From Escherichia phage vB-EcoP-XT18, in sequence record OR757434.1: a stretch of 64,000 bases of DNA, one strand, 5' to 3'. How positions within the stretch are numbered: the stretch's first letter is position 1; each line of letters begins with the position of its first letter. Both the position numbers and the translations under genes were made by a program. Shown one piece after another: positions 1-36,629 of this stretch. The notes beneath the pieces were generated by a model. It searched no databases. It had not been told where the DNA came from and was given only the letters and a program-made list of their open reading frames with translations.

Positions 1-885
1 GTGTTGCGGCTTCTGTTGAACATTAAGATTCCATATCCGTGGAAGACTCTGAATGAGATGACCTTCGGTATTCGATGGGGGGAGGTGGTAGCAATCGGTG
101 GTGGTGTAGGTAGTGGTAAAACACTAATTGCTCACGAACTGGTTGCTCATCTGTGCTTAGAGCATGGTTTTAATGGGGGTGGCTTCTTCTTGGAAGAGAA
201 GGTAGGCATGTCTGTTAAGAACATCGCTGGTAAGTCAGCATCAATTCCTTTCCACCGACCTGATGTTGAATATGACGAGGAAGATTTGCGTAATGAAGCA
301 CTTCGTTATGCAGACAAATTCTTCTTGTATGACAACTTTGGGCAGAACGAATGGGAAGACATTAAACAGTGTATCCGTTTCTGGGTAGTTGAAAACCAGT
401 GTAAGTTCATCATTCTTGATAACATTACCGCTCTGGTATCTCATTTAACACCTTCAGAGATTAACACTGAAATCAGTAAGATTGCTTCCGAGCTTGCTGG
501 TATGTGTAAAGAATTAGACTTTACCGCTTTCGTGCTATCTCACCTTAATGCTCCGGCAGGTGGTGCTCCTCACGAAGAAGGTGGACAGGTACGTGAAGTA
601 CAGTTCACTGGCTCTCGTTCTCTTATGCGTTGGTGTCAGTGTATCATTGGCTTTGAGCGTGATAAGCAAGCTGACGGCTTAGCTAAGAACCTCTCAGTCA
701 TTCGATTATTGAAAGAACGTAACTACGGTCAGACTGGTGTCTGTTATACTAAGTATATCAGTGAAACCGGTAGACTTGTAGAAAGGGAAGACTTTGAAGT
801 TGATGAAGATAATCCATTCGTTTTAACTAACGGAGAGGATGCAGCTTCTCTCGTCAACCAAGCAGATGGAGCTTCACCGTGGTAA
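1..885 (+). CDS. DNA primase/helicase, C-terminal DnaB-like helicase domain (5' end lies outside the window)
   Basis: Walker [10 protein letters not shown]; ORF open from base 1; layout like the helicase half of T7 gp4. Confidence 0.8.
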
Positions 886-1433
886 AGAAAAAGAAAGTGT
901 TTGCATTTGATATCGAAAGTAATGCACTATACGATGACATAACTAAAGTATGGTGTATTTACATTTTCGATGTTGAAACTGGTGAAAGGTGGGGCTATCG
1001 GCCTCACCAAATTGAAGATGGGATTCGTAAACTTACAGAAGCTGATGTGCTCGTTGGTCATAACATTATTGACTTTGACTTACCTGCTCTGAAAAAGATG
1101 TATCCCTCTTTGATTAAATATAATTTTAACGTCTTTGACACTTTATGTCTTAGTCGATATCTTAAACCTGACCGTATTGGTGACAGTCCTGAGTACCCGA
1201 AAGGTGACCCTAGACATGGCCCAAGAGGTCATGGCTTGAAGCAATGGGGTGAGTTCTTAGAGGAACTTAAAGGTGATTACGGTGAGCAAGAGGAAGCATG
1301 GGATGCTTTCACTGAAGATATGTTTACTTATTGTGAGCAGGACGTTAACTTAACCGTTAAGGTTTATAAATACTTGTGTGAACTCACAGGATTTGATCCT
1401 TACGACCCACCTTCATTATATTGGAAAATGTAA
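879..1433 (+). CDS. Family-A DNA polymerase, 3'-5' exonuclease domain only (part 1 of a split polymerase)
   Basis: [19 protein letters not shown] and YCEQDV resemble Exo I/II/III motifs and the T7 gp5 N-terminus; ORF stops at the exo/pol boundary. Confidence 0.8.
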
Positions 1434-2805: not shown

Positions 2806-3339
2806 ATGAGTTTACTAGGAAGTGTTGAACTGCATGATGTAATTGACAATGGCTATCTGGATGCGGAGCATAAGTATGTTAACGCTGCTAGTGTGGATAT
2901 CCGTATTGGTGATACTATCCTTGTTGAAGAACAGGCTGATGGCATCGTTGATATTGATGCGAAAGAGAATCTTCAGTGGAAGGAAGTAAAAATCCCTGAA
3001 GAGGGCTTGGTTATCACTCCGGGTCAGTTCTTCTTGGCTCACTCTATGGAGGAGTTTAATCTTCCAGATAACATCTCAAGTCTGTTTGTTCTGCGTTCGT
3101 CTATGGCTCGTTGTGGTTTGAACCACCTTCACGCCGGTTGGGCAGATGCAGGATTTAATAGCAGTAAGCTGACATTTGAATTCCATAACGTAACCAAGCA
3201 CCACAGTTTACGAGTTCGTGCTGGTATGCGTGTTGGTCAGATGGTGATGTTTGAGCACTCTCATGCAGGGGAACATTCCTATGCAGTGAAGGGGCGTTAT
3301 AATAACTCTGAAGGTGTAGTTGCATCTAAAGGTGTGTAA
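2806..3339 (+). CDS. dcd: dCTP deaminase
   Basis: ASVDIRIGDT, RSSMARCGL and YNNSEGVVASKG align by eye with E. coli Dcd motifs. Confidence 0.8.
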   Translation: MSLLGSVELHDVIDNGYLDAEHKYVNAASVDIRIGDTILVEEQADGIVDIDAKENLQWKEVKIPEEGLVITPGQFFLAHSMEEFNLPDNISSLFVLRSSMARCGLNHLHAGWADAGFNSSKLTFEFHNVTKHHSLRVRAGMRVGQMVMFEHSHAGEHSYAVKGRYNNSEGVVASKGV

Positions 3340-3546
3340 ATGACTGAAGAAGAGTTCCAAGAACTGAAAGGTTTGACTACCGAGGTTCAATTAAAAGCTA
3401 TGACATTTGGTCGAGCATGTCATCAATTTGATATATGCGTCGAAAGCAGTAAAGAAGCTTGTAAGAGCTATATGGATAAGAAGCACCTTGAATGGGGTAA
3501 AGCCTCTAACGATCTTTATAACTATATGAAGGGTTTAGTAAAATGA
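3340..3546 (+). CDS. hypothetical protein
   Basis: ORF in operon context. Confidence 0.4.
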   Translation: MTEEEFQELKGLTTEVQLKAMTFGRACHQFDICVESSKEACKSYMDKKHLEWGKASNDLYNYMKGLVK

Positions 3547-3740
3547 AAAAGTGGATTGTTCGTGTACATGATGATATGACTGGAGACTTGGTAGCTGTAG
3601 ATTTTATTAACACTCGAGAACACGCCCGTAGGGTCAAAAACCAATACAAGTCTACTTTTAGACTCAATAAGGTTACAATAGGAAAAGCTATTGTGAATAA
3701 CGAAGGTGCTCTTTTTGCCAACAGCAAGGTTTATTATTAA
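3543..3740 (+). CDS. small basic protein, paralog family A member 1
   Basis: shares W..V...TR.EAR..KK...VYY pattern with 3740-3949, 3959-4159 and 6501-6710. Confidence 0.45.
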   Translation: MKKWIVRVHDDMTGDLVAVDFINTREHARRVKNQYKSTFRLNKVTIGKAIVNNEGALFANSKVYY

Positions 3741-3949
3741 TGAGACCAATCACTATGAGACAGTTTTGGTTAGCAAAGATTAAGTGGGCATCAGGTGGTA
3801 TGACTATGACTGCACTTCCTACTCGTCAACAGGCTCGAGATTTTAAAAAGACTATGCTTACTGGTGACGTGGTCAATAGTATCAGTATCCATAAGGCCAA
3901 GGAGTATTCTTCTGGTCGTGTTTATATCAGCGGAAAGGTACATTACTAA
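3740..3949 (+). CDS. small basic protein, paralog family A member 2
   Basis: paralog pattern, ends VHY. Confidence 0.45.
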   Translation: MRPITMRQFWLAKIKWASGGMTMTALPTRQQARDFKKTMLTGDVVNSISIHKAKEYSSGRVYISGKVHY

Positions 3950-3958
3950 TGAAAAAAG

Positions 3959-4159
3959 ATGTGGGCGATTCGTGTTGTTTGGGATCTTGATCAACACACG
4001 AGAAAAGATAGCATCAAATTGTTTGACACTCGCAAAGAGGCTCGTATTGCTAAGAAACAGTTGAAGACTCTGGGCACAATAGTAAAAAGCGCTGATATAC
4101 ATCGCTGGTACGAAGACCCTAACTCGGGTTCTTTTATGTCTAAAGTAATTTATTACTGA
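3959..4159 (+). CDS. small basic protein, paralog family A member 3
   Basis: paralog pattern, ends VIYY. Confidence 0.45.
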   Translation: MWAIRVVWDLDQHTRKDSIKLFDTRKEARIAKKQLKTLGTIVKSADIHRWYEDPNSGSFMSKVIYY

Positions 4160-4231: not shown

Positions 4232-4558
4232 ATGTTAGATTTGAGTAAAGTGGCCCCGCCCACTGAAGAGATTACAAAATCCAAGGTGATGCAACAGTTT
4301 TATCATCGTGATATGCTTGGTCGCTTTATCAAGAATCGTGATGTTGTTGCTTGGTCTATTGGTAATCAAGGATATCTGTTGAAGGTTCTTCAGGTTACAG
4401 GTTCAACTGCTAAGCGAGTTAAGGTGTATGACCCTGAAATGGGGCGTTCTAAGTCAGTAGACCCGCAGAACTGCATCGTAATTACCCAGCAGGTGATAGC
4501 AAATCTAGAAAGAAATGTAGCAAACTCTACTGAGTTAGAAGGAGAAGACCCTAAGTGA
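4232..4558 (+). CDS. hypothetical protein
   Basis: ORF with GGAG-type RBS. Confidence 0.45.
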   Translation: MLDLSKVAPPTEEITKSKVMQQFYHRDMLGRFIKNRDVVAWSIGNQGYLLKVLQVTGSTAKRVKVYDPEMGRSKSVDPQNCIVITQQVIANLERNVANSTELEGEDPK

Positions 4559-5049
4559 TTCCAAAGGAATTGGAAGGGAAGATTGATGTAACAGAGGATG
4601 GTAGAGTATTTACTATAAAAAGTGGAAGGTTTTTAACCCTCCACACTAATGGTGCCTATTACAGAGTTACTATTTACTTTCCTGAAGGATTAAAGAATTT
4701 CTATGTCCACAGGCTGGTTGCTAGTAAGTACATACCGAACCCTGATAATCTTCCATGTGTCAACCATAAGGATGGCAATAAACTTAACAATCATAAAGAT
4801 AATCTTGAATGGTGTACCCACCGAGAAAACTCTCAACATGCATCATCATTAGGTCTGATGGTACAGAGGTTTGGAGAAGACAATCCGCAGTCTAAACTTA
4901 CTCTAGAAGATGTAGAGTACTGTAGGAGAGTTTATATCCCTCGAGATAAAGAGTTTGGAGGCTCTGCCCTTGCAAGACGTTTTGGTGTCTCTCAGCAAGT
5001 GATATCAAAAGTTCTACTTAATCAAACTTGGAGGGAATATAATGCATAA
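4555..5049 (+). CDS. HNH homing endonuclease with C-terminal HTH
   Basis: VNHKDGNKLNNHKDNLEWCTHRENSQH; paralog of 41312-41824. Confidence 0.8.
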   Translation: MIPKELEGKIDVTEDGRVFTIKSGRFLTLHTNGAYYRVTIYFPEGLKNFYVHRLVASKYIPNPDNLPCVNHKDGNKLNNHKDNLEWCTHRENSQHASSLGLMVQRFGEDNPQSKLTLEDVEYCRRVYIPRDKEFGGSALARRFGVSQQVISKVLLNQTWREYNA

Positions 5050-5605
5050 GAATGTTTTTGATTTACCTGAGATTGGTCGTGCCGAATATAATATGTTAGA
5101 CCGATCAGAGCTTTCAATCTCTCGCCTTGAAACAATGCAGGGTATGATTAGTGGAAACAGCCTAGAACACATCCTGAGCTGCTTACAAGCTAACATAGAA
5201 CTCTTGCATATCAAAGCTAAAAACTACCATTGGAACGTCTCTGGTGCAGGATTTCAGGGTGTTCATGGTATGTTTGATGAGCTGGAAGATTACGCACGAC
5301 AAGTAGGAGATCGTATTGCTGAACGTATGCGTTACCACTGTGTTAAAGTGGACGCCACAGCAGCCAATTATCTCTCCCATGCTTGGTTCTCAGAGGGTAA
5401 TGCTGACCTAGATATGGACGGTATGCTCTCTGATATGTGCATGACCTTGATGTGTATTATTGAGAAGATGGATGAGTTTGATGGTGATTTAGCCACTTAT
5501 CCAGTTGATCAGAGTATGCTTCAAGAAATTAATGAAGGTCTTGGCAAGTATTGCTACTTCGTCAAGAGCAACATGTCCCACTCAAGTGGCGATGTGTCTT
5601 ACTAA
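5042..5605 (+). CDS. Dps/ferritin-like protein
   Basis: KNYHWNVSGAGFQGVHGMFDELEDYARQVGDRIAER resembles the Dps core HWN..G..F..H..F.E....D.IAER. Confidence 0.6.
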   Translation: MHKNVFDLPEIGRAEYNMLDRSELSISRLETMQGMISGNSLEHILSCLQANIELLHIKAKNYHWNVSGAGFQGVHGMFDELEDYARQVGDRIAERMRYHCVKVDATAANYLSHAWFSEGNADLDMDGMLSDMCMTLMCIIEKMDEFDGDLATYPVDQSMLQEINEGLGKYCYFVKSNMSHSSGDVSY

Positions 5606-5666
5606 AAACCTCCGCCCTGTCTCCTAACCCGAGGTGGGGCGAACTTATTTATAAGGATATAGATAT

Positions 5667-5846
5667 ATGTTATCAGCAATCGTATGGGGTATTTGGGCTG
5701 TCTTTATTGGTGGTGGTATCTATTGGGCTTCTGGCAAGCTTATTGAAGAAACTCCTGACAAGAAAGGTGAGATTCAAACAGCATCAACCATCATGGTTGT
5801 CGTAGCTGTTGTTATCCCATTCCTGCTTCACCTCCTGACTGCATAA
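5667..5846 (+). CDS. small membrane protein (59 aa, below the ORF-track cutoff)
   Basis: ATG with AAGGA RBS; two hydrophobic segments; the overlapping track ORF 5551-5805 is in another frame and less plausible. Confidence 0.4.
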   Translation: MLSAIVWGIWAVFIGGGIYWASGKLIEETPDKKGEIQTASTIMVVVAVVIPFLLHLLTA

Positions 5847-5855
5847 GGGTTTGAT

Positions 5856-6041
5856 ATGATTTCACTGATTGTGTGGGCCGTGTGGTCGTTAATAGTTGGT
5901 ACTGTTATATATAAAGCTCGAAATTTAGCAATTAAAGAAAACCCAGCAGAAGAGGATGTTAAAGCTATCAAGCTAGGCAGTGTTGTTCTGGTACATTTTG
6001 CTATAACACTACCTCTTGTTATTATTCTTTGTATGCTATAA
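5856..6041 (+). CDS. small membrane protein
   Basis: two hydrophobic segments; similar to 5667-5846. Confidence 0.4.
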   Translation: MISLIVWAVWSLIVGTVIYKARNLAIKENPAEEDVKAIKLGSVVLVHFAITLPLVIILCML

Positions 6042-6231
6042 GGAAACCAAAGAGTGAAACTAAACCTACCTGAAGAATTACAAGCACATGCCATTATCGT
6101 TAGTGGCTGTGTGATGGGTCTTGGTCAAACAAAGAAGATTGCTCATGACTTAGCAAAAGGTCAGTATAAATCTTTTATTGTTGTTCCTGCTACCCAACGT
6201 CATATCAACCTGTTTATTAACAAGGAATAGA

Positions 6232-6504
6232 ATGTCTAAAGTGATTAAGTTTTATAGCGATCAGTGTGCTCCATGTAAAGCAATGGCTCCTACCTTTGAG
6301 AAGGTTGTTAAGGAGTTCGATGTAGAAGTAGAAGAGATTAACATCCTTGAAGGTGATGGTCGTGAACAAGCTGTTAAGTATGGTGTAAGAAGCATCCCTG
6401 CTTTCGTTGTACCTGACCGTAATAGTGGTGCACACTATAGTCTCTCTGGTATGCAGACCGAAGCAAACCTGAAAGCATTCTTAACTACTGCCCTAGGTGT
6501 TTGA
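6232..6504 (+). CDS. thioredoxin-like protein
   Basis: CAPC active-site motif in thioredoxin-fold context; ATG at 6232 has an RBS, track start 6178 is probably too far upstream. Confidence 0.65.
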   Translation: MSKVIKFYSDQCAPCKAMAPTFEKVVKEFDVEVEEINILEGDGREQAVKYGVRSIPAFVVPDRNSGAHYSLSGMQTEANLKAFLTTALGV

Positions 6505-6710
6505 TTATGAAAAAATATTGGACGGTGGTATATTACCTCTACCAAGACCCGGCTATACCTGTTACAGAGCACTTTGCTACTCGTAAAGATGCTCGCCGTT
6601 TTAAGAAGGCTCTTAAGATGTCTCCAAAGATTTATAGTAAAGTAAGCTTACATAAATCAACATTGTCAGAGAAGGGAACCTTAGTGGTTTGTTATGTAAA
6701 AGAATATTAA
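6501..6710 (+). CDS. small basic protein, paralog family A member 4
   Basis: TRKDARRFKKAL...VKEY pattern. Confidence 0.45.
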   Translation: MIMKKYWTVVYYLYQDPAIPVTEHFATRKDARRFKKALKMSPKIYSKVSLHKSTLSEKGTLVVCYVKEY

Positions 6711-6725
6711 TAAGGAAATTCACGG

Positions 6726-7217
6726 ATGAATGATATTGATCCATCAATAAAAGAAGCTCTTGATTATGACCCTTTGACTGGAGATTTCCGATGGGTTAAA
6801 ACTTATGGAAAAGGGCGCAAAGGGTCTATAGCTGGTTCTATAAATACCAACGGGTATTTGAGAATCGTTTATAAAGGTGTTAGGTATTATGCTCATCGAC
6901 TTGCTTACTGGTGGGACACTGGATTGCTTCCTGAAGAAGTGGACCATGTAGACCGCAACAGACTAAATAACAAAAGAGAGAACCTTAGAGGGACTACTAG
7001 GTCAGGGAATGGACTCAACAAAATAGCCCAAAGTAACAACTTATCAACCGGAGTGATTGGAGTAACTCTTCATAGAAGGAAAAGTGGCTCTATTGCTTAC
7101 CGGGCGGTATTCAAATCTAAGCACATAGGACTCTTCTCAACTATAGAAGAAGCCTCTAAAGCATATAATAAAGTCAAGGAGACTTATATAAATGACAATC
7201 AAAGCTTCACTAATTGA
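6726..7217 (+). CDS. HNH homing endonuclease
   Basis: VDHVDRNRLNNKRENLR HNH core. Confidence 0.75.
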   Translation: MNDIDPSIKEALDYDPLTGDFRWVKTYGKGRKGSIAGSINTNGYLRIVYKGVRYYAHRLAYWWDTGLLPEEVDHVDRNRLNNKRENLRGTTRSGNGLNKIAQSNNLSTGVIGVTLHRRKSGSIAYRAVFKSKHIGLFSTIEEASKAYNKVKETYINDNQSFTN

Positions 7218-7839
7218 TAACTTCGGTTCCGACCTTACTGTGGTCAATGCTGCTCGTGTGACTATGGGGGTAGAAAGAGAGGAGTTGAAAGAAAGTGATA
7301 CTCGGCTTATTAACTTCCTAGCTCGAGAGCGACACGTAAGCCCTTTTCGCCACCCACAAGCTAGCTTCAGATGCGAAGCCCCTATAGCAATTGCACGTCA
7401 GCTACAGAAGCATCAAGTTGGTTTTTCTTGGAATGAGATGAGTCGTAGATATAAAGATGGAGCAGTGGATATTTTTATACCTAAAGAAATCTTCTCTCGC
7501 CCCGATGATCTACATTCGGGTTCTGGAACACTCCTTGAAGGAGATGAAGAGGTAAAGGCTTTAGCTTTGTTTAACTCTGCATATGAGGCATCTCTTGCTA
7601 GTTATGATGAATTAATTAAGTTCGTAGCTCCTGAACAGGCTAGATTTGTTTTACCTCAAGGTATGGTAACTACTTGGTACTGGACTGGTTCTTTGTATGG
7701 CTGGTTTGAGTTGTGTCGTCAGCGACTATCCTCCCATGCTCAGTATGAAGTTCGAGTGTTTGCTCAATCTCTGGATGAAGAGATGGCTAAACTCTACCCA
7801 ATCTCGTGGGCAGCTCTGAAGAAAACTTTGGAGAGTTAA
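7192..7839 (+). CDS. thyX: FAD-dependent thymidylate synthase (ThyX-like) with variant active-site motif
   Basis: by-eye alignment to ThyX (VNAARVTMG, SHAQYE); canonical RHR-x7-S appears as KHQ-x8-S. Confidence 0.7.
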   Translation: MTIKASLIDNFGSDLTVVNAARVTMGVEREELKESDTRLINFLARERHVSPFRHPQASFRCEAPIAIARQLQKHQVGFSWNEMSRRYKDGAVDIFIPKEIFSRPDDLHSGSGTLLEGDEEVKALALFNSAYEASLASYDELIKFVAPEQARFVLPQGMVTTWYWTGSLYGWFELCRQRLSSHAQYEVRVFAQSLDEEMAKLYPISWAALKKTLES

Positions 7840-8024
7840 TGACACATAAAGTGTGTAGCTTCTGTAAGAAAGAGAAGACTATCATCAACTTCAAACCTAA
7901 TCCTGTAACTGGTCTGTCTCATGTTATGTGTCACTCTTGTAGGATATATCTTGAAACAAAGCACACCATTAACAGGTTGCATTATTATCACCCAACAACA
8001 TTCAAATTTAAGGTTGTTAAATGA
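7839..8024 (+). CDS. small zinc-ribbon protein
   Basis: CSFC...CHSC; ATG overlaps the thyX stop. Confidence 0.4.
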   Translation: MTHKVCSFCKKEKTIINFKPNPVTGLSHVMCHSCRIYLETKHTINRLHYYHPTTFKFKVVK

Positions 8025-8224
8025 AAACATTATGGACTCTTGACTGTCAAGATGATGACGGAGAGCGTTGGACTTGGAAATATTTCCTAGGGAAACCAAC
8101 ACCCGAGAACCCTGCTTTGGATTGTGCTTCATATGAAGATGCTAAGAAGCTGGTAAATGGAGAAAAGGTTTGGTCTCCGGATAATGAAGTTCAGTACTTT
8201 TTAACAGAACGGAAATTTTCATAA
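8021..8224 (+). CDS. hypothetical protein
   Basis: ORF, translationally coupled. Confidence 0.4.
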   Translation: MKTLWTLDCQDDDGERWTWKYFLGKPTPENPALDCASYEDAKKLVNGEKVWSPDNEVQYFLTERKFS

Positions 8225-8547
8225 TGATTGACGGTAATACATTTAGGACTTCAAATGGAAGTGAAATAAGTCCCGCTGAAGTGATTAATCGGCACAGAAG
8301 GCAATTGATCATCCATTCCTATTTGTATTACTGGTTGGATGACCCTATCTGGTCTGATGATAAATGGCAACAAGTTGCTAACGATTTGGTTGAGTTGCAA
8401 GCCTTGTATCCAGAGCCTACCGGAGTCTTTGACAATGAGTTCAAAGATTGGGATGGTTCTACAGGGATGCATCTCCCACATAACGAAGCTGTTGCTTGTA
8501 TGGCGACAGCTGTTTACAGACTTCATAAAGAGGTTAACTTCGCATGA
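8224..8547 (+). CDS. hypothetical protein
   Basis: ORF. Confidence 0.45.
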   Translation: MIDGNTFRTSNGSEISPAEVINRHRRQLIIHSYLYYWLDDPIWSDDKWQQVANDLVELQALYPEPTGVFDNEFKDWDGSTGMHLPHNEAVACMATAVYRLHKEVNFA

Positions 8548-8744
8548 GCGTAGTTTATGTTCTAGAAAGATATGCTGAAGATCACAACAGTATTGTTGCC
8601 ATATTTAAATATGCCCCAGATGTTGAGGATATTTTGAATGTGACTCACTTAACTAATGTTGATAAAATCAAAGACCTCATCAGGAATGACAATGCCCACA
8701 TAGGTGACTCTCTGTGGTCTCTTACCGAATGGACATTGTGGTGA
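8544..8744 (+). CDS. hypothetical protein
   Basis: ORF. Confidence 0.4.
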   Translation: MSVVYVLERYAEDHNSIVAIFKYAPDVEDILNVTHLTNVDKIKDLIRNDNAHIGDSLWSLTEWTLW

Positions 8745-8926
8745 AGTGCTCTAGGTGTGAAGGAACAAACCTTCATTTAAGTAACAAGGTTATCAGAGAG
8801 CTTGCCAAAGGCTCTCCAACCAAAGGGAAGAACAAACGATTTACTAACGTCAGGGTTTATACAGCAATCTGTAAAGACTGCTTAACTACTGAGTGTCATT
8901 ACGAAGAAATTGGAGAGCGTAAATGA
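8714..8926 (+). CDS. small Cys-rich protein
   Basis: CSRC...CKDC...ECH. Confidence 0.35.
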   Translation: MVSYRMDIVVKCSRCEGTNLHLSNKVIRELAKGSPTKGKNKRFTNVRVYTAICKDCLTTECHYEEIGERK

Positions 8927-9660
8927 GTCGTCGTCAATCACGGAAAGAATCACGGAAAGACCTTCGTCGGGAAGCACTTGTCACTCGTAAGGGTAAGCGC
9001 GAGTTTGAAGAGGTGGTTTTAGCAAAGCCTGTAGTCCCTCAGAACCAGTTCCAGTCTGAACTGCTCAATGCTATCAAGACTAAACAAGTTGTGTTCACAG
9101 ACGCTCCTGCGGGCTGCGGGAAGACCTTTGTAATCACTTCCACAGTTATTGATGCACTGAAGAGTGGTAAGATTCAGAAGATCATTCTGAGTCGCCCTTC
9201 TGTTGGCATGGGTAACTCACTTGGGTTGCTTCCGGGAGGAATGCGTGAGAAATTTGAACCATATCTGATGCCAATCATTGATGTTATTACTCAGAGATAT
9301 GGTAAGGGGTTCTATGAATGCCAGCTCGGTAATAGTAACATTGAGTTTGTACCTCTGGAGTATCTCCGTGGTCGTTCTTTCAATGATGCTATCGTTATCG
9401 TTGATGAGTTCCAGAACACCACTAAAGATGAAGCCTTCTCAATCATGACTCGATTGGGAGAAACCTCTCAGCTGTTCTGCATGGGTGATACAAACCAGCA
9501 TGATATGCGTGGTCGTGAGAGTGGTCTTACTTGGGCTACTAACTTTATTGATGAACATGATCTGTATGAGTTCGCTGAGATTGTAGACGGCGAATCAGAT
9601 GACATTGTTCGTTCTGGTTTCTGTAAAGCTATTGTTAAAGCAATGGAAAAGAAAGCTTAA
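8923..9660 (+). CDS. phoH: PhoH-like ATPase
   Basis: Walker A APAGCGKT, Walker B IVIVDEFQN. Confidence 0.8.
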   Translation: MSRRQSRKESRKDLRREALVTRKGKREFEEVVLAKPVVPQNQFQSELLNAIKTKQVVFTDAPAGCGKTFVITSTVIDALKSGKIQKIILSRPSVGMGNSLGLLPGGMREKFEPYLMPIIDVITQRYGKGFYECQLGNSNIEFVPLEYLRGRSFNDAIVIVDEFQNTTKDEAFSIMTRLGETSQLFCMGDTNQHDMRGRESGLTWATNFIDEHDLYEFAEIVDGESDDIVRSGFCKAIVKAMEKKA

Positions 9661-9671
9661 ACAGTAACTTA

Positions 9672-9680
9672 TAATGTATA
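9672..9680 (+). promoter_or_regulatory. TAATGTATA, putative phage-sigma-dependent promoter
   Basis: motif about 35 nt upstream of the 9717 ATG; same 9-mer recurs upstream of other genes on both strands. Confidence 0.45.
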
Positions 9681-9716
9681 CTCCTTAGTGTACACTGATA
9701 TATTAAGGAGTTTTAA

Positions 9717-10040
9717 ATGGCAGACCATGTAGGAAAGAGAGATTATGCACAAGAAAGACGTACCGCCATCGCAAGGGGTGAAACGGGAATTGGTAGCAAG
9801 AGCGGAGATGCTCAGCGCCACCGTGCACGTCGCATCGTTGAAAAGCGCGATGGAAAAGCTGCTGTCAGAGGTAAAGACGTTGGACACAAGCGAGCCATCA
9901 AGTCAGGAGGCTCTAATGCGTCAAGCAACTTACGTGTTGAAACAGTCAGCGGAAATCGTTCAGCTGGCGGCAAAAGTGGAGATCGAGCTGGGAAGGCAGC
10001 TGGCGCTGCTAAGCGAAAAGGAGCTTTAAGCTCCTCGTAA
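9717..10040 (+). CDS. basic Gly/Lys/Arg-rich protein, possibly nucleic-acid binding
   Basis: AAGGAG RBS 6 nt before the ATG; an alternative frame 9745-10029 is also open. Confidence 0.45.
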   Translation: MADHVGKRDYAQERRTAIARGETGIGSKSGDAQRHRARRIVEKRDGKAAVRGKDVGHKRAIKSGGSNASSNLRVETVSGNRSAGGKSGDRAGKAAGAAKRKGALSSS

Positions 10041-10044
10041 TATG

Positions 10045-10075
10045 AGGCTACCCAAATGGGTGGCCTTTTCTTTTA
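10045..10075 (+). terminator. rho-independent terminator
   Basis: 9-bp stem AGGCUACCC/GGGUGGCCU with one G-U, then UUUCUUUUAU. Confidence 0.6.
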
Positions 10076-10108
10076 TATAAACCGAATTAAACTTCTTAGG
10101 TAATAACT

Positions 10109-10357
10109 ATGTCTATTGTAAAAACTGTAACTATTATTGATGTAATGACTGTCCGTCTGGTTAAGTGGAAATTCACCAACAATCATGGCATTGCTAATCT
10201 CATTGCAAACCAGATTGGTCATAACCCAAAAACAGCTCGTACTAACGTAATCCTCCGTGGTGCTGATGGGAAGTTCATTTCTTATAAGAATAAAGATGTA
10301 GAGAAAGAATTCCGTGTTGCAGTAGAAAACCTCATCCCATTCCCTAAAGGAGTTTAA
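10109..10357 (+). CDS. hypothetical protein, tandem paralog 1
   Basis: shares KTART.V.LR...GKFISY....PFPKG with 10359-10634. Confidence 0.5.
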   Translation: MSIVKTVTIIDVMTVRLVKWKFTNNHGIANLIANQIGHNPKTARTNVILRGADGKFISYKNKDVEKEFRVAVENLIPFPKGV

Positions 10358-10358
10358 T

Positions 10359-10634
10359 ATGAATAAATTAGCTATGGTTCAGATTCGAGACATATACCCT
10401 AACCATCCGGAGAAAACTTGGTCTTATCTGTTGACTGAAAGCAAGACTATTGACACATATCTTGCAGGGGTTGACACTATCCCAACCAGTATCACATTGC
10501 TCCCTCACAAAACAGCCAGAACCCATGTGATGTTACGTGACAGCAAAGGTAAGTTTATCTCTTATCGAGATGCTCGAATCAATAGCGAAATTAAATCTGC
10601 TATGGAATCTTTAACGCCATTCCCAAAAGGTTGA
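10359..10634 (+). CDS. hypothetical protein, tandem paralog 2
   Basis: paralog of 10109-10357. Confidence 0.5.
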   Translation: MNKLAMVQIRDIYPNHPEKTWSYLLTESKTIDTYLAGVDTIPTSITLLPHKTARTHVMLRDSKGKFISYRDARINSEIKSAMESLTPFPKG

Positions 10635-10797
10635 GTGATGAAAGAATACATTTACGTAGGAAAGCGCTGGGTCGGTGATGAATGGGAAGGTGGATACAGC
10701 GTTGTGAAAGCTTTTAAGTCTGAAGAAGATGCTAAGGCGTGGGTCTTAAAAGATGACGTTGGTGAGAGAACTTACATTGAAGTAGAGGTGGAGTAGA

Positions 10798-11214
10798 ATG
10801 CCATTACCAGCTAGACATCAAAACAGATTCCTAGTTCTCAAGTGGGATGATATCGAAATGAATCTCACTGAACACGAACTTGATTTGTTCCATGAACTGT
10901 TGTCAGAGATTCGCTCTGGTATCCCTGATCGTCAGTATGTAGTTATCAGTGATAAGCACCCTCAAGAGTTTGAAGAAGTTTGGGGTATGAAGTTAGCTTA
11001 TATCCAGAGAGCTATTCGAGAAAGAGAAGAAGTCGCTAACCAAAGGGTTGTGGCCCATTTAGTACGAGAGCAACCTCGTGAAGCTGGGGCTAACCATGCA
11101 CCACCTCCTCCTCGTACAGTTATCAATGGGATGGTTAGGGCTTATAGTGACGAAGCTACCATGTTAGATGTGGTAGAAGATAACCAAGCATTTACAGATT
11201 TACTTTACCAATAA
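10798..11214 (+). CDS. hypothetical protein
   Basis: ORF immediately upstream of the polymerase-domain gene. Confidence 0.45.
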   Translation: MPLPARHQNRFLVLKWDDIEMNLTEHELDLFHELLSEIRSGIPDRQYVVISDKHPQEFEEVWGMKLAYIQRAIREREEVANQRVVAHLVREQPREAGANHAPPPPRTVINGMVRAYSDEATMLDVVEDNQAFTDLLYQ

Positions 11215-11230
11215 TTTAAAGGAGTATAAA

Positions 11231-13075
11231 GTGAGCAACCCGGACGCTCTCCCATTTTTGACAGAGATGACTGTCGCTGATATAATCTCTAAGCAAGCGA
11301 AGCACGGAGTGAGTTTCAACCGAAGAAATGCTCGGTGGTATGTTCACCTCCTTAAAGAGATTATTGTTAATATTGACAAAGAACTGATTCCTCTCTTACC
11401 TAAGATGCGATTAGATGGCTCTACTTACATGAAACCATTTAAGAAGTCTGGAGCTTTACAGAAATGGCCTCAAGCCTATTGTGATAGAGTTGGACTTAAG
11501 AGAGAAGACATTGGTGGAGCATTCACCTGTGTTGAATACGTAGACTTTGACCCATCGAAAGATGCACGAGTTAAAGAAGCCCTTATGGATGAGGGTTTTC
11601 TTCCTCCAGAGTTTAACGTATCAAAGAAACCTTGGAATACTTTTGAAATCAAGAAAGATATGCGAAAGTATGGAACATACCAAGCATGGTATTCAGCTTG
11701 GATGCGAGGTAATGCTAAACAGAAGCAGACAGCCGAGATGGTTGACGCTGATATTAGGAAGTTCTTAGAAAAGCATTTTAGGTTTAAGACTAAGAACTAT
11801 ATGAAGGCTTATGTATTTGGTTTAGGTTTAAATCCTAACCGACGTAGACCTATCACTTTTGACGAGATTAAGATAGCACTAGCTACCTCAAACAAGTGGC
11901 CTACAGCTCCTACAAACCTCGAGGAGACTCTTGAAGAAGGGTTAGGGGGTGAGTTAGGAAGTGTCGGAAGTTTGCTTAAGAGACGCGTTGTAGCGGCTCA
12001 CAGGCTAGGTCTTATCAGTGGACTAATAGCAAAGGAACGCGAAGATGGTAAACTTTCGGCAGAAGCTAACAGCTGCGCTACGCCGACTTTTCGATTCAAA
12101 CATCGTATCGTGGTTAATATTCCCTCCCGTGGTTTGTTTGGTCATGAGTGTCGCAGTTTGTTTGAGTCTGACTATAACTCAGATGATGATCACTCTCGTC
12201 CTTTCGTTATTACTAACGTTGTTCCTGATGGTTGTTATATACGAAAAGGTACTAACGTAATTTACGAGAAAGGTAAGCCGGGGAAGAAAGATAAGCCTGT
12301 AGGTGCTTACAAATATTACATACCCGCTGGTAAAGAAGTATTCTTAGGGTATGATGGTTCTGGGTTAGAGTTGCGTATGCTGGTACATTATCTAGTAAAA
12401 GAGTGCCTTGATATGATGGAGGAGGCTAAACTAGAAAATGACAAAGTTAAATATCTAAGAGCTGAGAAAGGCTTAGAAGCTGCCTATACATACAGAGATG
12501 TACTGCTGTCTGGTGATATTCATTCCCACAATCAGAAACTCGCTGGGCTTCCAACTCGTGACAATGCAAAAACCTTCATCTATGGATTCCTGTATGGAGC
12601 AGGAGCAGCTAAAATTGGGGAAATAGTTGGAGGGGGTGCTCAAGAAGGTGAAATTCTTAGAGAGCGATTCTTAGCGGAATGTCCTTGTATTCCTATCGTA
12701 CTGGAGAGAGTTCAGGCCCGAGCGGAATCAGGCACTTTGGAAGGTGTGGATGGTCGTAAGTTAACTATGAGACGAGATGCTACTGGTAAGGTTATGGTGC
12801 ATAAAGCACTGAATACTCTACTTCAGAGTGCAGGTGCCATTGTCATGAAGTACTCTATTCTGTTTACAAACAAATGGGTAGAGCAGCAGAATATTAGAGG
12901 AAACAAAGTGATCGATTATCATGATGAAGCACAGTGGTCTGTCAACCGTAACGACGTTGATAAAATGAAGAAGATAGCTGAGACTTGTGTTAAGAAGGCA
13001 GGTGAATATCTAAACATGCACTGTGAACTAGCTTCTGATTGTAAAATCGGATTGAATTGGATGCAAACTCACTAA
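11231..13075 (+). CDS. Family-A DNA polymerase, polymerase domain (part 2 of the split polymerase)
   Basis: GYDGSGLELRML, SGDIHSHNQKLAGLPTRDNAKTFIYGFLYGAG and DYHDEAQ correspond to T7 gp5 motifs A, B and C. Confidence 0.85.
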   Translation: MSNPDALPFLTEMTVADIISKQAKHGVSFNRRNARWYVHLLKEIIVNIDKELIPLLPKMRLDGSTYMKPFKKSGALQKWPQAYCDRVGLKREDIGGAFTCVEYVDFDPSKDARVKEALMDEGFLPPEFNVSKKPWNTFEIKKDMRKYGTYQAWYSAWMRGNAKQKQTAEMVDADIRKFLEKHFRFKTKNYMKAYVFGLGLNPNRRRPITFDEIKIALATSNKWPTAPTNLEETLEEGLGGELGSVGSLLKRRVVAAHRLGLISGLIAKEREDGKLSAEANSCATPTFRFKHRIVVNIPSRGLFGHECRSLFESDYNSDDDHSRPFVITNVVPDGCYIRKGTNVIYEKGKPGKKDKPVGAYKYYIPAGKEVFLGYDGSGLELRMLVHYLVKECLDMMEEAKLENDKVKYLRAEKGLEAAYTYRDVLLSGDIHSHNQKLAGLPTRDNAKTFIYGFLYGAGAAKIGEIVGGGAQEGEILRERFLAECPCIPIVLERVQARAESGTLEGVDGRKLTMRRDATGKVMVHKALNTLLQSAGAIVMKYSILFTNKWVEQQNIRGNKVIDYHDEAQWSVNRNDVDKMKKIAETCVKKAGEYLNMHCELASDCKIGLNWMQTH

Positions 13076-13451
13076 ATTCAGAACTGAAAGATTGGAATAC
13101 AAATGAACTAGTCTTATTGATTAGTTCATAACAAGGAGATTGAAGTGGAAGAGATGCAATCGGATTGGTGTTATCGTCAGAGCGCCATCTGTAATGAACA
13201 AGGACGTCCTGATGAAGCTGAGTTTTATTTAGAACTCGCTGAACTATGGAAAGAGAGAGAGGAAAAGAATGACTGCAACTGAATTGAAAGAAACCATGTC
13301 CACTGAAGAAGGTAAAGCTTTCTTCCTAACTCAAGTACACTCTATGGGTAAAGATGCCCTTCGCCAAGCAGTCGTTGAGCTTACTGGTGTAGTGATTGAC
13401 TTGAGTATTGAAAATGAAACACTTGAAGCTAAAGTAAAAAGTTAAATAAGA

Positions 13452-13491: not shown

Positions 13492-13884
13492 ATGAATATT
13501 GGTTTAGATTACGATGATACTTACACCTCAGATAAGAAGCTGTGGCGCTCTGTGGTGGCATTAATGCAAGCTAAAGGTTATGATGTACGTTTTGTAACTT
13601 ATCGCTTTGCAGAGCCTAATGGATATGATAATCACGACATTAAGATTGATGCAGAGTGTTTGCAAATTCCTATCATCTTTTGTAATGGTGTGCAGAAGGA
13701 TGAGGTTTGTCGACAGTTAGGTTTCTTTGTAGATATCTGGATTGACGATTTCCCTGTTGGAATCCCCAAAAAGGACCACCTAGATGGTATGCTGAAGGGT
13801 GTAAGACTTAATGACCTTAGGGCAGCACCTCCTGTAGAAATAGCCGCTCCTGTGTACTCTGAAGAGCCTCTGGTGATTCGATGA
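13492..13884 (+). CDS. HAD-like phosphatase or nucleotidase
   Basis: DYDDT fits HAD motif I (DxDxT); IWIDDFP fits the acidic motif; ATG at 13492 has an AAGGA RBS. Confidence 0.45.
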   Translation: MNIGLDYDDTYTSDKKLWRSVVALMQAKGYDVRFVTYRFAEPNGYDNHDIKIDAECLQIPIIFCNGVQKDEVCRQLGFFVDIWIDDFPVGIPKKDHLDGMLKGVRLNDLRAAPPVEIAAPVYSEEPLVIR

Positions 13885-14048
13885 AAAAGTATAGTGTATG
13901 GTTTAACGAGGTAGAAGAAGGTTTTGATGAAGTTGGTGGATGGGTTAATATCCTAAACACTGATGATATAGAAGAGGCCGAGAAGTGCGCCCTAAACTAT
14001 AACTCTGGATATTATGAAAGAAATTGGGAATACGAGGAAGAAGTATGA
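13881..14048 (+). CDS. small acidic hypothetical protein (55 aa)
   Basis: ATG overlaps the upstream stop (ATGA); below the track cutoff. Confidence 0.3.
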   Translation: MKKYSVWFNEVEEGFDEVGGWVNILNTDDIEEAEKCALNYNSGYYERNWEYEEEV

Positions 14049-14266: not shown

Positions 14267-14483
14267 AATGGAATACATTGATAAATACTCAAGTGAAGAT
14301 TCAAAAGACGCTGAAGTTTTGTTCGTACTGAAAACAGACTGTTTAGAACATGGACAGCTTATCAACTTTATTGAATTGGCAAAACTTAAAGAAGAAATTG
14401 ATCAACTATACAGTGATGAGCAATCCAGATTACTTTCCTTGTCCCTGCTAGGTGACTTAACCTGTGATGGTTGCATGATATGA
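14232..14483 (+). CDS. hypothetical protein
   Basis: ORF. Confidence 0.3.
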   Translation: MLLTTNKEMWCKMEYIDKYSSEDSKDAEVLFVLKTDCLEHGQLINFIELAKLKEEIDQLYSDEQSRLLSLSLLGDLTCDGCMI

Positions 14484-14953
14484 TAGAAGATCTTCTGGAT
14501 GAGTTCTTTGTTTGTGATTTATCATCTGGGAAAGTGTTCTGGAGAATTCACAACGGAACAAAATGCAGGCGGGGTGACGAGGCAGGAACTTCAAAAAAGG
14601 ATGGAAGAGTGCTTATTCGATTGAAAGGAAGAGCCATTTACAGATACCACATCATTTGGTATTTTGCTAATGGTGTTTTACCTAAAGATCAAATAGATCA
14701 CATTGATCGAAACCCTTCCAACGATTCCATAGGCAACCTTAGAGAAGTTAACAACGAGAATAATTCTTGGAACAAGGGTTTGAACTCTAACAACACATCA
14801 GGAGCTAAGGGCGTATACCTCAATTCAAGAGGGAAGTACATAGCCAACATACATATTAGAGGTAAAACTAAATACCTAGGAACTTTCTCAACCCTAGAGG
14901 AAGCCGTCTCTGTTAGAAACAGAGCGGAGGAAGATCATAAATTAACTACCTAA
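14471..14953 (+). CDS. HNH homing endonuclease
   Basis: IDHIDRNPSNDSIGNLREV HNH core. Confidence 0.75.
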   Translation: MHDMIEDLLDEFFVCDLSSGKVFWRIHNGTKCRRGDEAGTSKKDGRVLIRLKGRAIYRYHIIWYFANGVLPKDQIDHIDRNPSNDSIGNLREVNNENNSWNKGLNSNNTSGAKGVYLNSRGKYIANIHIRGKTKYLGTFSTLEEAVSVRNRAEEDHKLTT

Positions 14954-35825: not shown

Positions 35826-36629
35826 TTAACTAATACGTCTCCAGATATATGCTGCACGGAAAGGTGGTAGCGTATTTATAGGTTGACGAGATACGTCATC
35901 ATAGCCAAATGTTGCATTGCCAGTGATAGAGTGGGTGTGGGTATCAGAACTTGTTACAGCAGAATATCCACTACCTGGACTGTACCAGTTAGGTGAGCTA
36001 TTATGACCACTTGCATCTCCACGTCCAAATGATGTAGTGTGTGAGTGTGTATAGTTAGAAAGAGAAAAACTTGAACCAGAGATTGTAGTCAATGGCAGGT
36101 TCTCTGTCTTAACTGTGTTGTAAACACGACCACCTGTAGCACCAGCAGTAAACTCCACACGCTGAGCATTAGGGACTGTCCCATCAGGGTTCACAACCCC
36201 AGCACCCATGATAACACCAGTAACTGCTGTCCAGATACCAAACCCTAAAGATGTAGAATCTCCAGGGTTAATATCTTCCTCAGTGATGTAATAAGACCCA
36301 ACCCTGTAAATCTTATTCTGCATCCAGTTGAGCATAAAAGATTCCATTTGAGCTTTGGTGGTAAAGTCGCTATTACCAGTACCTGCTGTACCGTTCTTAA
36401 TCATCAGACCACCAACATCCATATAGTCACCAGCAAAAGAGATCTTGTCAGAGATGGCGGCTAGTGTATCAGAATCTACTGTCATAGGCTCAGTTAAGTT
36501 GGGGAATGTGTTCTGTAATACTTGCTTAACTAGGCGCAGCTGGGCTGCACCTTCATAGATATAATCTCTATCACGAGGATAGAGAGGGTTTAAGTCGGTA
36601 ACTACTACCGCATTAGTTTCAATAGCCAA
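35826..36629 (-). CDS. tail-fibre-like structural protein
   Basis: ORF in the late operon; Gly/Ser/Thr-rich C-terminus. Confidence 0.4.
   Translation of the reverse strand: MAIETNAVVVTDLNPLYPRDRDYIYEGAAQLRLVKQVLQNTFPNLTEPMTVDSDTLAAISDKISFAGDYMDVGGLMIKNGTAGTGNSDFTTKAQMESFMLNWMQNKIYRVGSYYITEEDINPGDSTSLGFGIWTAVTGVIMGAGVVNPDGTVPNAQRVEFTAGATGGRVYNTVKTENLPLTTISGSSFSLSNYTHSHTTSFGRGDASGHNSSPNWYSPGSGYSAVTSSDTHTHSITGNATFGYDDVSRQPINTLPPFRAAYIWRRIS

Follow-up and report, generated by a model that had tools for sequence, protein, structure and literature searches.

The location of a thioredoxin gene between the exonuclease and polymerase genes of a split T7-type DNA polymerase raises the question of whether a phage may supply its own polymerase cofactor, a part played in phage T7 by the thioredoxin of the host, or whether the protein serves another function. 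We examined this locus in Escherichia phage vB-EcoP-XT18 (OR757434.1), for which a stretch of 64,000 nucleotides (hereafter, the window) was analyzed. The window is a Kuravirus genome, i.e., that of a phiEco32-like E. coli podophage of the C3 morphotype. An initial annotation had described the gene product as a CAPC thioredoxin-fold protein and had interpreted it as a phage-supplied cofactor of the polymerase. The description was borne out by the location of the CAPC codons, the Pfam assignment, and the structure predictions, and the interpretation is partly supported and unproven.

Both the gene and the processivity hypothesis are already in the literature, and the novelty of the locus is low for this reason. 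For the Proteus phage Privateer, the thioredoxin was proposed to couple to the T7-like polymerase and thereby raise its processivity (Corban and Ramsey, 2021; PMC7881722). What is added here is a precise map of a shortened insert in the polymerase thumb, together with a control provided by LUZ24-like phages, and these make the question directly testable. The coordinates of the relevant features are provided in Table 1.

Table 1. Features of the thioredoxin locus and the split polymerase, with positions in the window.
Feature	Position (nt)	Strand	Remarks
3'-5' exonuclease half of the split polymerase	879..1433	+	T7 gp5 residues 5-196, 33% identity, E = 9e-18
dCTP deaminase	2806..3339	+	Directly adjoins the thioredoxin gene in GAP52 and Privateer
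108-aa conserved protein	4232..4558	+	No Pfam match; travels with Dps and thioredoxin
Dps-like ferritin	5042..5605	+	Linked to the thioredoxin gene across C3-type phages
Ribosome-binding site AAGGA	6222..6226	+	5 nt before the ATG; read from sequence
Thioredoxin gene	6232..6504	+	ATG at 6232 to TGA at 6504, 90 aa; annotated as thioredoxin in related phages
Active-site codons C12-A13-P14-C15	6265..6276	+	Codons 12-15; C12, P14, and C15 invariant in the family
P56 codon (cis-Pro76 of E. coli Trx)	6397..6399	+	Invariant in the family alignment
ThyX, flavin-dependent thymidylate synthase	7192..7839	+	Same block as the thioredoxin
Polymerase half of the split T7-type family A DNA polymerase	11231..13075	+	614 aa; sequence and fold matches to T7 gp5
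Thumb insert, polymerase residues 58-105	11402..11545	+	Between helix H (31-55) and helix H1 (111-120)
Segment REDIGGAFTCVEY, polymerase residues 91-103	11501..11539	+	Homologous to T7 R318-H331 (E319, T327, V329, E330)

Identity and Predicted Fold of the Thioredoxin

The protein starts with MSKVIKFYSDQCAPCK and has QCAPC at its active site, and the flanking genes are packed tightly against its ORF. It matches the Pfam thioredoxin family (PF00085; E = 2.5e-13, 50.3 bits versus a cut-off of 23.5), and thioredoxin is also the top-ranked assignment in NCBIfam. The score against the equivalog model TIGR01068 (49 bits) is below the cut-off of 96.8, so the sequence indicates a member of the thioredoxin superfamily at the domain-family level rather than a standard TrxA equivalog. 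The top sequence matches in PDB are classical thioredoxins, including residues 24-105 of E. coli Trx1.

The AlphaFold2 model, which was built from an alignment of 15 family members, has a pLDDT of 93 and a beta-alpha-beta-alpha-beta-beta-alpha core with four strands and three helices. The five strands and four helices of the classical fold are not all present; beta1-alpha1 of E. coli Trx is missing, and the phage protein starts at the equivalent of Trx residue 24. In a Foldseek search against PDB, the best 50 matches are all thioredoxins, among them the thioredoxin from the complex with T7 polymerase, and the comparison with E. coli Trx gives a TM score of 0.82 and an rmsd of 1.6-1.9 Å.

A grouping with the glutaredoxin/NrdH families, which the initial annotation had regarded as evidence against its proposal, was not found, and sequence and structure both place the protein in the classical thioredoxin class. 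We rejected a glutaredoxin or NrdH identity because Pfam and NCBIfam give no match to Glutaredoxin (PF00462) or NrdH and the 50 best structural matches are thioredoxins; the sole glutaredoxin-type match is a marginal one to the YruB family (NCBIfam, E = 0.04). The CAPC active site also differs from the CPYC or C[VM]QC motif of these redoxins. The T4 NrdC/NrdH-type redoxins are similar in having ~80-90 aa, four strands, and three helices, and in being encoded by phages or nrd operons. However, they serve ribonucleotide reductases (RNRs), whereas the Kuravirus protein is thioredoxin-like and its genome has no RNR. The gene product is therefore predicted, from sequence and from the structural model, to be a divergent, minimal thioredoxin. 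A recent capture from the host was also rejected, since the protein and E. coli TrxA are just 31% identical.

Distribution and Conserved Residues

Positions 5000-13100 of the window are 99.9% identical to vB-EcoP-XT32, and the thioredoxin is 100% identical in phages NJ01, 172-1, and XT73; many of the available records already annotate a thioredoxin. Based on tblastn, the gene is present in 126 phage records, nearly all of which are enterobacterial phages of the Kuravirus lineage. The thioredoxins of Privateer and the C3-type phages belong to the same family (44% identical over residues 1-59; PMC7881722, PMC4281155). In the study of SU10, thioredoxin was among the few genes common to all C3 phages sequenced at that time, and its product was detected by mass spectrometry with 52.8% coverage (PMC4281155). 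A pseudogene or chance ORF was rejected in light of this proteomic detection and the conservation of the family.

Thioredoxin genes are uncommon among phages in general; of 50,697 phage records, just 279 have a match to E. coli TrxA. A scan of IMG/VR for thioredoxin loci returned 16 loci only, mostly known Kuravirus. Among 80 IMG/VR loci with T7-family polymerases, most of them on short contigs, a thioredoxin was found within 10 kb in a single case (a close relative) and in none of the nine that have an RNR nearby.

Nine residues (C12, P14, C15, P20, N37, G51, R53, P56, and G73) are invariant down to ~50% identity, in line with their general conservation among thioredoxins. The CxxC motif and the cis-proline are still present in relatives at ~40% identity. 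By correspondence to E. coli Trx, P56 is cis-Pro76, G73 is G92, R53 is R73, and I55 is I75. Both the CxxC motif and the cis-proline loop are present in the protein studied here, with the W and G of WCGPC changed to Q and A. Across the family, D26 of E. coli Trx is replaced by K6, W31 by Q, S, or T, G33 by A or S, and G74 by S, and the same residue signature is seen again in Privateer, 7-11, and GAP52. Judging from the alignment, the buried D26-K57 pair of E. coli Trx looks to have been swapped to K6-E35, a swap that is absent from more distant family members.

The Split Polymerase and Its Thumb Insert

The initial annotation had placed the thioredoxin gene between the two polymerase halves, and the exonuclease and polymerase genes indeed lie on either side of it (Table 1). 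However, this position says little because the two halves are separated by ~9.8 kb and ~30 other genes besides the thioredoxin. The exonuclease and the polymerase are likewise split in LUZ24, LAh_9, Privateer, 7-11, GAP52, and TacPo2. The gap observed here is far wider than the adjacent fission reported as the first in S-SBP1-like phages (PMC10201439).

The polymerase half belongs to the T7 subfamily of family A polymerases. Its closest solved relative is T7 gp5 (phmmer against PDB, E = 9e-37), and the AlphaFold2 model (pLDDT 92.8) has its best Foldseek match in the same protein (E = 1.4e-25, versus ~6e-16 for Pol I). In a MAFFT alignment that includes E. coli Pol I, helix H is followed directly by helix H1 in Pol I, and an insert separates the two helices in T7 and in the Kuravirus clade. 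A comparison with T7 gp5 for a thioredoxin-binding insertion, as the initial annotation had suggested, thus yielded an insert of 46 aa. It occupies the place that the thioredoxin-binding domain has in T7, with a shorter length and only partial homology to that domain. Insert length was defined as the spacing between two conserved anchors minus the Pol I spacing; the anchors are 34 aa apart in Pol I, 80 aa in the Kuravirus polymerase, and 103 aa in T7, which corresponds to inserts of ~46 and ~69 aa, respectively. This spacing is 80-84 aa in 61 of the 70 measurable relatives.

The homology to the T7 domain extends from the C-terminal portion of the insert through helix H1, where polymerase residues 72-145 align with T7 gp5 residues 293-373 (BLASTP, E = 3e-5; HMMER agrees). 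In a molecular dynamics study based on the crystal structure, the contacts between T7 gp5 and thioredoxin are E319-K90, E330-R73, T327-I75, V329-R73, P325-A93, and Y265-I72 (PMC5984650). The equivalents of E319, T327, V329, and E330 are identical in the Kuravirus polymerase (E92, T99, V101, and E102), and R53 and I55 of the phage thioredoxin preserve the partner residues R73 and I75. The residue equivalent to E330 is W in Privateer, 7-11, GAP52, and LAh_9. Based on the MAFFT alignment, the counterpart of T7 residues ~266-290 is missing from the insert. This segment includes the basic residues K281, K285, and R288, which touch DNA in simulation once thioredoxin is bound (PMC5984650), and the basic DNA-contact loop is accordingly absent here. 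Other basic residues are found in the short insert (K58, R60, K68, K71, K72, K78, R86, K90, and R91). In the AlphaFold2 model, the insert forms an ordered small domain by itself (pLDDT ~90).

Compared with T7 gp5 in complex with E. coli thioredoxin (PDB 1T7P), the Kuravirus pair is alike in the polymerase subfamily, in the insert between helices H and H1, in a strand of the pattern R-E-x-[IV]-x-G-x-x-[FY]-T-x-V-E, and in the thioredoxin residues R73, I75, cis-Pro76, and G92. The differences are that the T7 partner is host-encoded and has WCGPC, whereas the thioredoxin here is phage-encoded, 18 aa shorter, 31% identical to E. coli Trx, and has QCAPC; that the 46-aa insert stands against one of 69 aa and has no counterpart of T7 ~266-290; and that exonuclease and polymerase are separate genes 9.8 kb apart.

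Two further features of the thumb were observed. Polymerase residue C100 (11528-11530) follows the T327 equivalent (FTCVEY) and is an alanine in most aligned relatives and a proline in T7. By analogy with the T7 complex, it is conceivable, as pure speculation, that C100 would lie near the active-site cysteine of thioredoxin and form a mixed disulfide. In addition, a second thumb insert of ~90-100 aa is found after H1 (~11612-11950, polymerase residues ~128-240). It is mostly helical, has no counterpart in T7 gp5, and is located at the same position as an insert in phiKMV-like polymerases.

Candidate Partners of the Insert

One explanation for these patterns is that the phage thioredoxin is a processivity subunit, whose active-site surface docks on polymerase residues ~91-105 of the thumb insert. 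We regard such docking as possible but on balance doubtful. The accompanying steps are equally tentative: on docking, the insert may become rigid and cover the duplex like a lid, as happens when E. coli Trx binds T7 gp5, and the phage might thereby be freed from the dispensable host gene trxA. The T7-subfamily polymerase, the placement of the 46-aa insert (69 aa in T7) exactly at the H/H1 site, and the four contact residues that are identical to those of T7, with their R53 and I55 partners kept, are all consistent with this explanation. Moreover, the thioredoxin is kept in two groups without RNR, namely, Kuravirus and TacPo2, and always between exonuclease and polymerase. The numbers of thioredoxin and polymerase-thumb matches in enterobacterial phages are also near equal (92/95, 8/8, 7/7, 6/6, and 3/3), and the loss of W31, D26, and beta1-alpha1 suggests specialization.

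However, several observations argue against a processivity subunit. Homologs of the thumb region (polymerase residues 1-140; 38-40% identity) were found in ~107 records of LUZ24-like Pseudomonas phages and also in phages of Aeromonas and Vibrio. All ORFs of LUZ24 were scanned with HMMs and none matched thioredoxin, which indicates that the insert exists without a phage thioredoxin. The DNA-contacting segment of T7 (~266-290, with K281, K285, and R288) is absent, the E330 equivalent is not maintained in the four phages that have W, and AlphaFold2 gives a well-ordered fold for the insert alone. R73, I75, and the cis-proline are near-universal in thioredoxins, such that a host thioredoxin would fit equally, and the contact motif therefore does not tell which thioredoxin, if any, binds. 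None of the listed relatives (120 of the polymerase, 79 of the thioredoxin) is a fusion of the two proteins, and CxPC and the cis-proline are invariant. The surroundings of the gene, with its nucleotide-metabolism and Dps neighbors, likewise speak against this explanation. The precedent of cyanophage Syn5, whose thioredoxin is the only one from a phage that was studied in the literature found, also points away from binding; Syn5 likewise combines its own thioredoxin with a T7-type polymerase, and both candidate roles were weighed there too, as AlphaFold3 predicted that host thioredoxins bind the Syn5 polymerase and that the phage one does not (bioRxiv 10.1101/2025.10.05.680603). The presence of the insert and the class of the thioredoxin are necessary, but not sufficient, for a processivity role.

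Alternatively, the insert may recruit host thioredoxin as in T7, or need none, with the phage thioredoxin being unrelated to the polymerase. We consider this rather unlikely. In its favor, the clade in which the insert is ancestral also contains the thioredoxin-less LUZ24-like phages, the length of the insert is fixed (anchor spacing of 80-84 aa in 61 of 70 measurable relatives), and the prediction shows it as well folded. The second helical insert could also contribute to processivity on its own. However, binding in T7 is specific, since T7 cannot efficiently use a thioredoxin that is 57% identical to that of E. coli, and a shared motif is thus no guarantee of an interaction. Among T7-like polymerases, a thioredoxin-binding domain of at least 50 aa is present in only ~29% (Czernecki et al., 2023). 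The same study described S-SBP1-like phages with split exonuclease and polymerase genes and a binding domain that is 32 aa shorter, for which AlphaFold2 predicted no complex between the polymerase and host thioredoxins (Czernecki et al., 2023). We found no report in the literature on the trxA dependence of Kuravirus or LUZ24.

A covariation between thioredoxin position 54 (G74 in E. coli) and the E330 equivalent of the polymerase was noted, in which S occurs with E, and A, G, or Q occurs with W. This was set aside because only ~7 lineages are involved and the pattern is confounded by relatedness.

Gene Context and Ribonucleotide Reductase

Among the phages compared, the presence of the thioredoxin gene follows that of the dCTP-deaminase/Dps/ThyX block more closely than that of the polymerase. 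The gene order in GAP52 and Privateer is dCTP deaminase, thioredoxin, a small protein, and Dps. In phage 7-11, it is dCTP deaminase, PhoH, and thioredoxin, with ThyX and Dps further along, and the P0141 contig (a 94-kb metagenomic relative) has a 106-aa protein, Dps, thioredoxin, and ThyX. TacPo2 has a dUTPase, MazG, and a CGPC thioredoxin, all located between exonuclease and polymerase. The genes for dCTP deaminase, the 108-aa protein, Dps, and thioredoxin co-occur in C3-type phages, and all four are absent from LUZ24-like phages. The 108-aa protein, the Dps-like ferritin, and the thioredoxin may represent a functional trio, as they were found together in all C3-type relatives examined. The Dps-like ferritin (5042-5605) has an intact ferroxidase-type motif (HW..G..F...H....D..AER), as read by eye.

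No RNR is annotated in a complete Kuravirus genome, and tblastn searches for class I and class III RNRs gave no match in the window, the complete Kuravirus genome, LUZ24, or the complete TacPo2 genome. Since RNR is the usual partner of phage thioredoxins, this absence favors either a role unrelated to RNR or the use of a host RNR. Class I RNR is encoded by Privateer and LAh_9. Privateer shares the split polymerase and the same gene block with Kuravirus but differs in encoding NrdA and NrdB. Aeromonas phage LAh_9, which has a Kuravirus-type polymerase with the thumb insert, encodes a 76-aa thioredoxin-like homolog with WCVNC (35947-36177; family HMM, E = 8.7e-9), and this gene adjoins the class I RNR genes and a DUF4326 gene.

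Several other genes were observed around the locus. Small paralogs of ~65-69 aa with the motif W...TR[KQE][ED]AR..KK (phrog_4939) are located at 3543-3740, 3740-3949, 3959-4159, and 6507-6710, the last of which directly follows the thioredoxin gene; weaker paralogs of this type are found at 8021-8224 and 10635-10796. Two tandem paralogs (10109-10357 and 10359-10634) share 56% identity across their C-terminal 41 aa (KTART.V.LR...GKFISY...PFPKG), and a similar C-terminal motif is also present in TacPo2 (13657-13950). Based on motifs and the annotation of relatives, three ORFs in the replication block are putative HNH-type homing-endonuclease-like genes. These are located between the 108-aa protein and Dps (4555-5049), between ThyX and the small protein that follows the thioredoxin (6726-7217), and upstream of a phosphoesterase gene (14471-14953). 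Phages WFI101126 and Paul have none of the three at the corresponding sites.

Proposed Function

Taken together, we consider a redox-active thioredoxin within a block for DNA-precursor supply and DNA protection to be the best reading of the locus, held with slightly less than even confidence. It is the most likely of three roles considered for the protein, followed by the polymerase processivity subunit and lastly a dual role. As a disulfide reductase, the protein would attack a substrate disulfide through Cys12, and the resulting mixed disulfide would be resolved by Cys15. The phage thioredoxin would then be reduced again by the thioredoxin reductase of the host at the expense of NADPH. The auxiliary block (dCTP deaminase or dUTPase, thioredoxin, the 108-aa protein, the Dps-like ferritin, and ThyX) may sustain the supply of DNA precursors and also protect DNA during infection. 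The likeliest clients would be the class Ia RNR of the host, given that the phage lacks an RNR of its own, or thiol and peroxide repair in concert with Dps, or both.

The redox reading is supported by the gene order beside dCTP deaminase, dUTPase/MazG, and Dps/ThyX in relatives, and by the LUZ24-like phages, which do not have the four genes and yet keep the same polymerase and insert. It is also supported by the LAh_9 homolog that adjoins class I RNR genes and by the precedent of Syn5, whose thioredoxin is redox-active and boosts phage DNA replication (bioRxiv 10.1101/2025.10.05.680603); Syn5 differs from Kuravirus in having its own RNR (bioRxiv 10.1101/2025.10.05.680603). Furthermore, T7 processivity is independent of the redox activity of thioredoxin (PMC5984650; bioRxiv 10.1101/2025.10.05.680603), and the strict retention of CxPC and the cis-proline thus fits catalysis better than it fits a processivity role.

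Other observations speak against the redox reading. The Kuravirus genome has no RNR, W31, G33, and D26 are replaced, beta1-alpha1 is missing, and the equivalog cut-off is not reached. In TacPo2, the thioredoxin is found between exonuclease and polymerase without Dps, the 108-aa protein, or RNR. The host provides abundant Trx1 and Grx1 for its own RNR, which makes the gain from an extra reductant uncertain. A dual role, in which one protein would act as a reductase and also as a subunit of the polymerase, just as E. coli Trx works with both RNR and T7 gp5, would be compatible with the retention of both catalytic and docking-surface residues, and we regard it as improbable.

Implications for Kuravirus and Phage Thioredoxins

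Kuravirus provides a clean test case for the role of a phage thioredoxin. It has a T7-type polymerase with the insert and no RNR, and it grows on E. coli K-12 (phage KM01). The LUZ24-like phages provide a natural control without thioredoxin. The protein might, with odds well below even, be a dedicated processivity subunit, i.e., a stripped-down thioredoxin co-adapted to the 46-aa insert of a split exonuclease/polymerase. If so, replication would be independent of host trxA, and we know of no earlier case in which a thioredoxin encoded by a virus has been shown to serve as a polymerase clamp. Such a role would mean that a virus took over a host cofactor as its own gene, and it could give a compact pair of polymerase and cofactor for biotechnology. 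If the processivity role is false, the Kuravirus locus would extend the conclusion from Syn5 that phage thioredoxins are metabolic genes.
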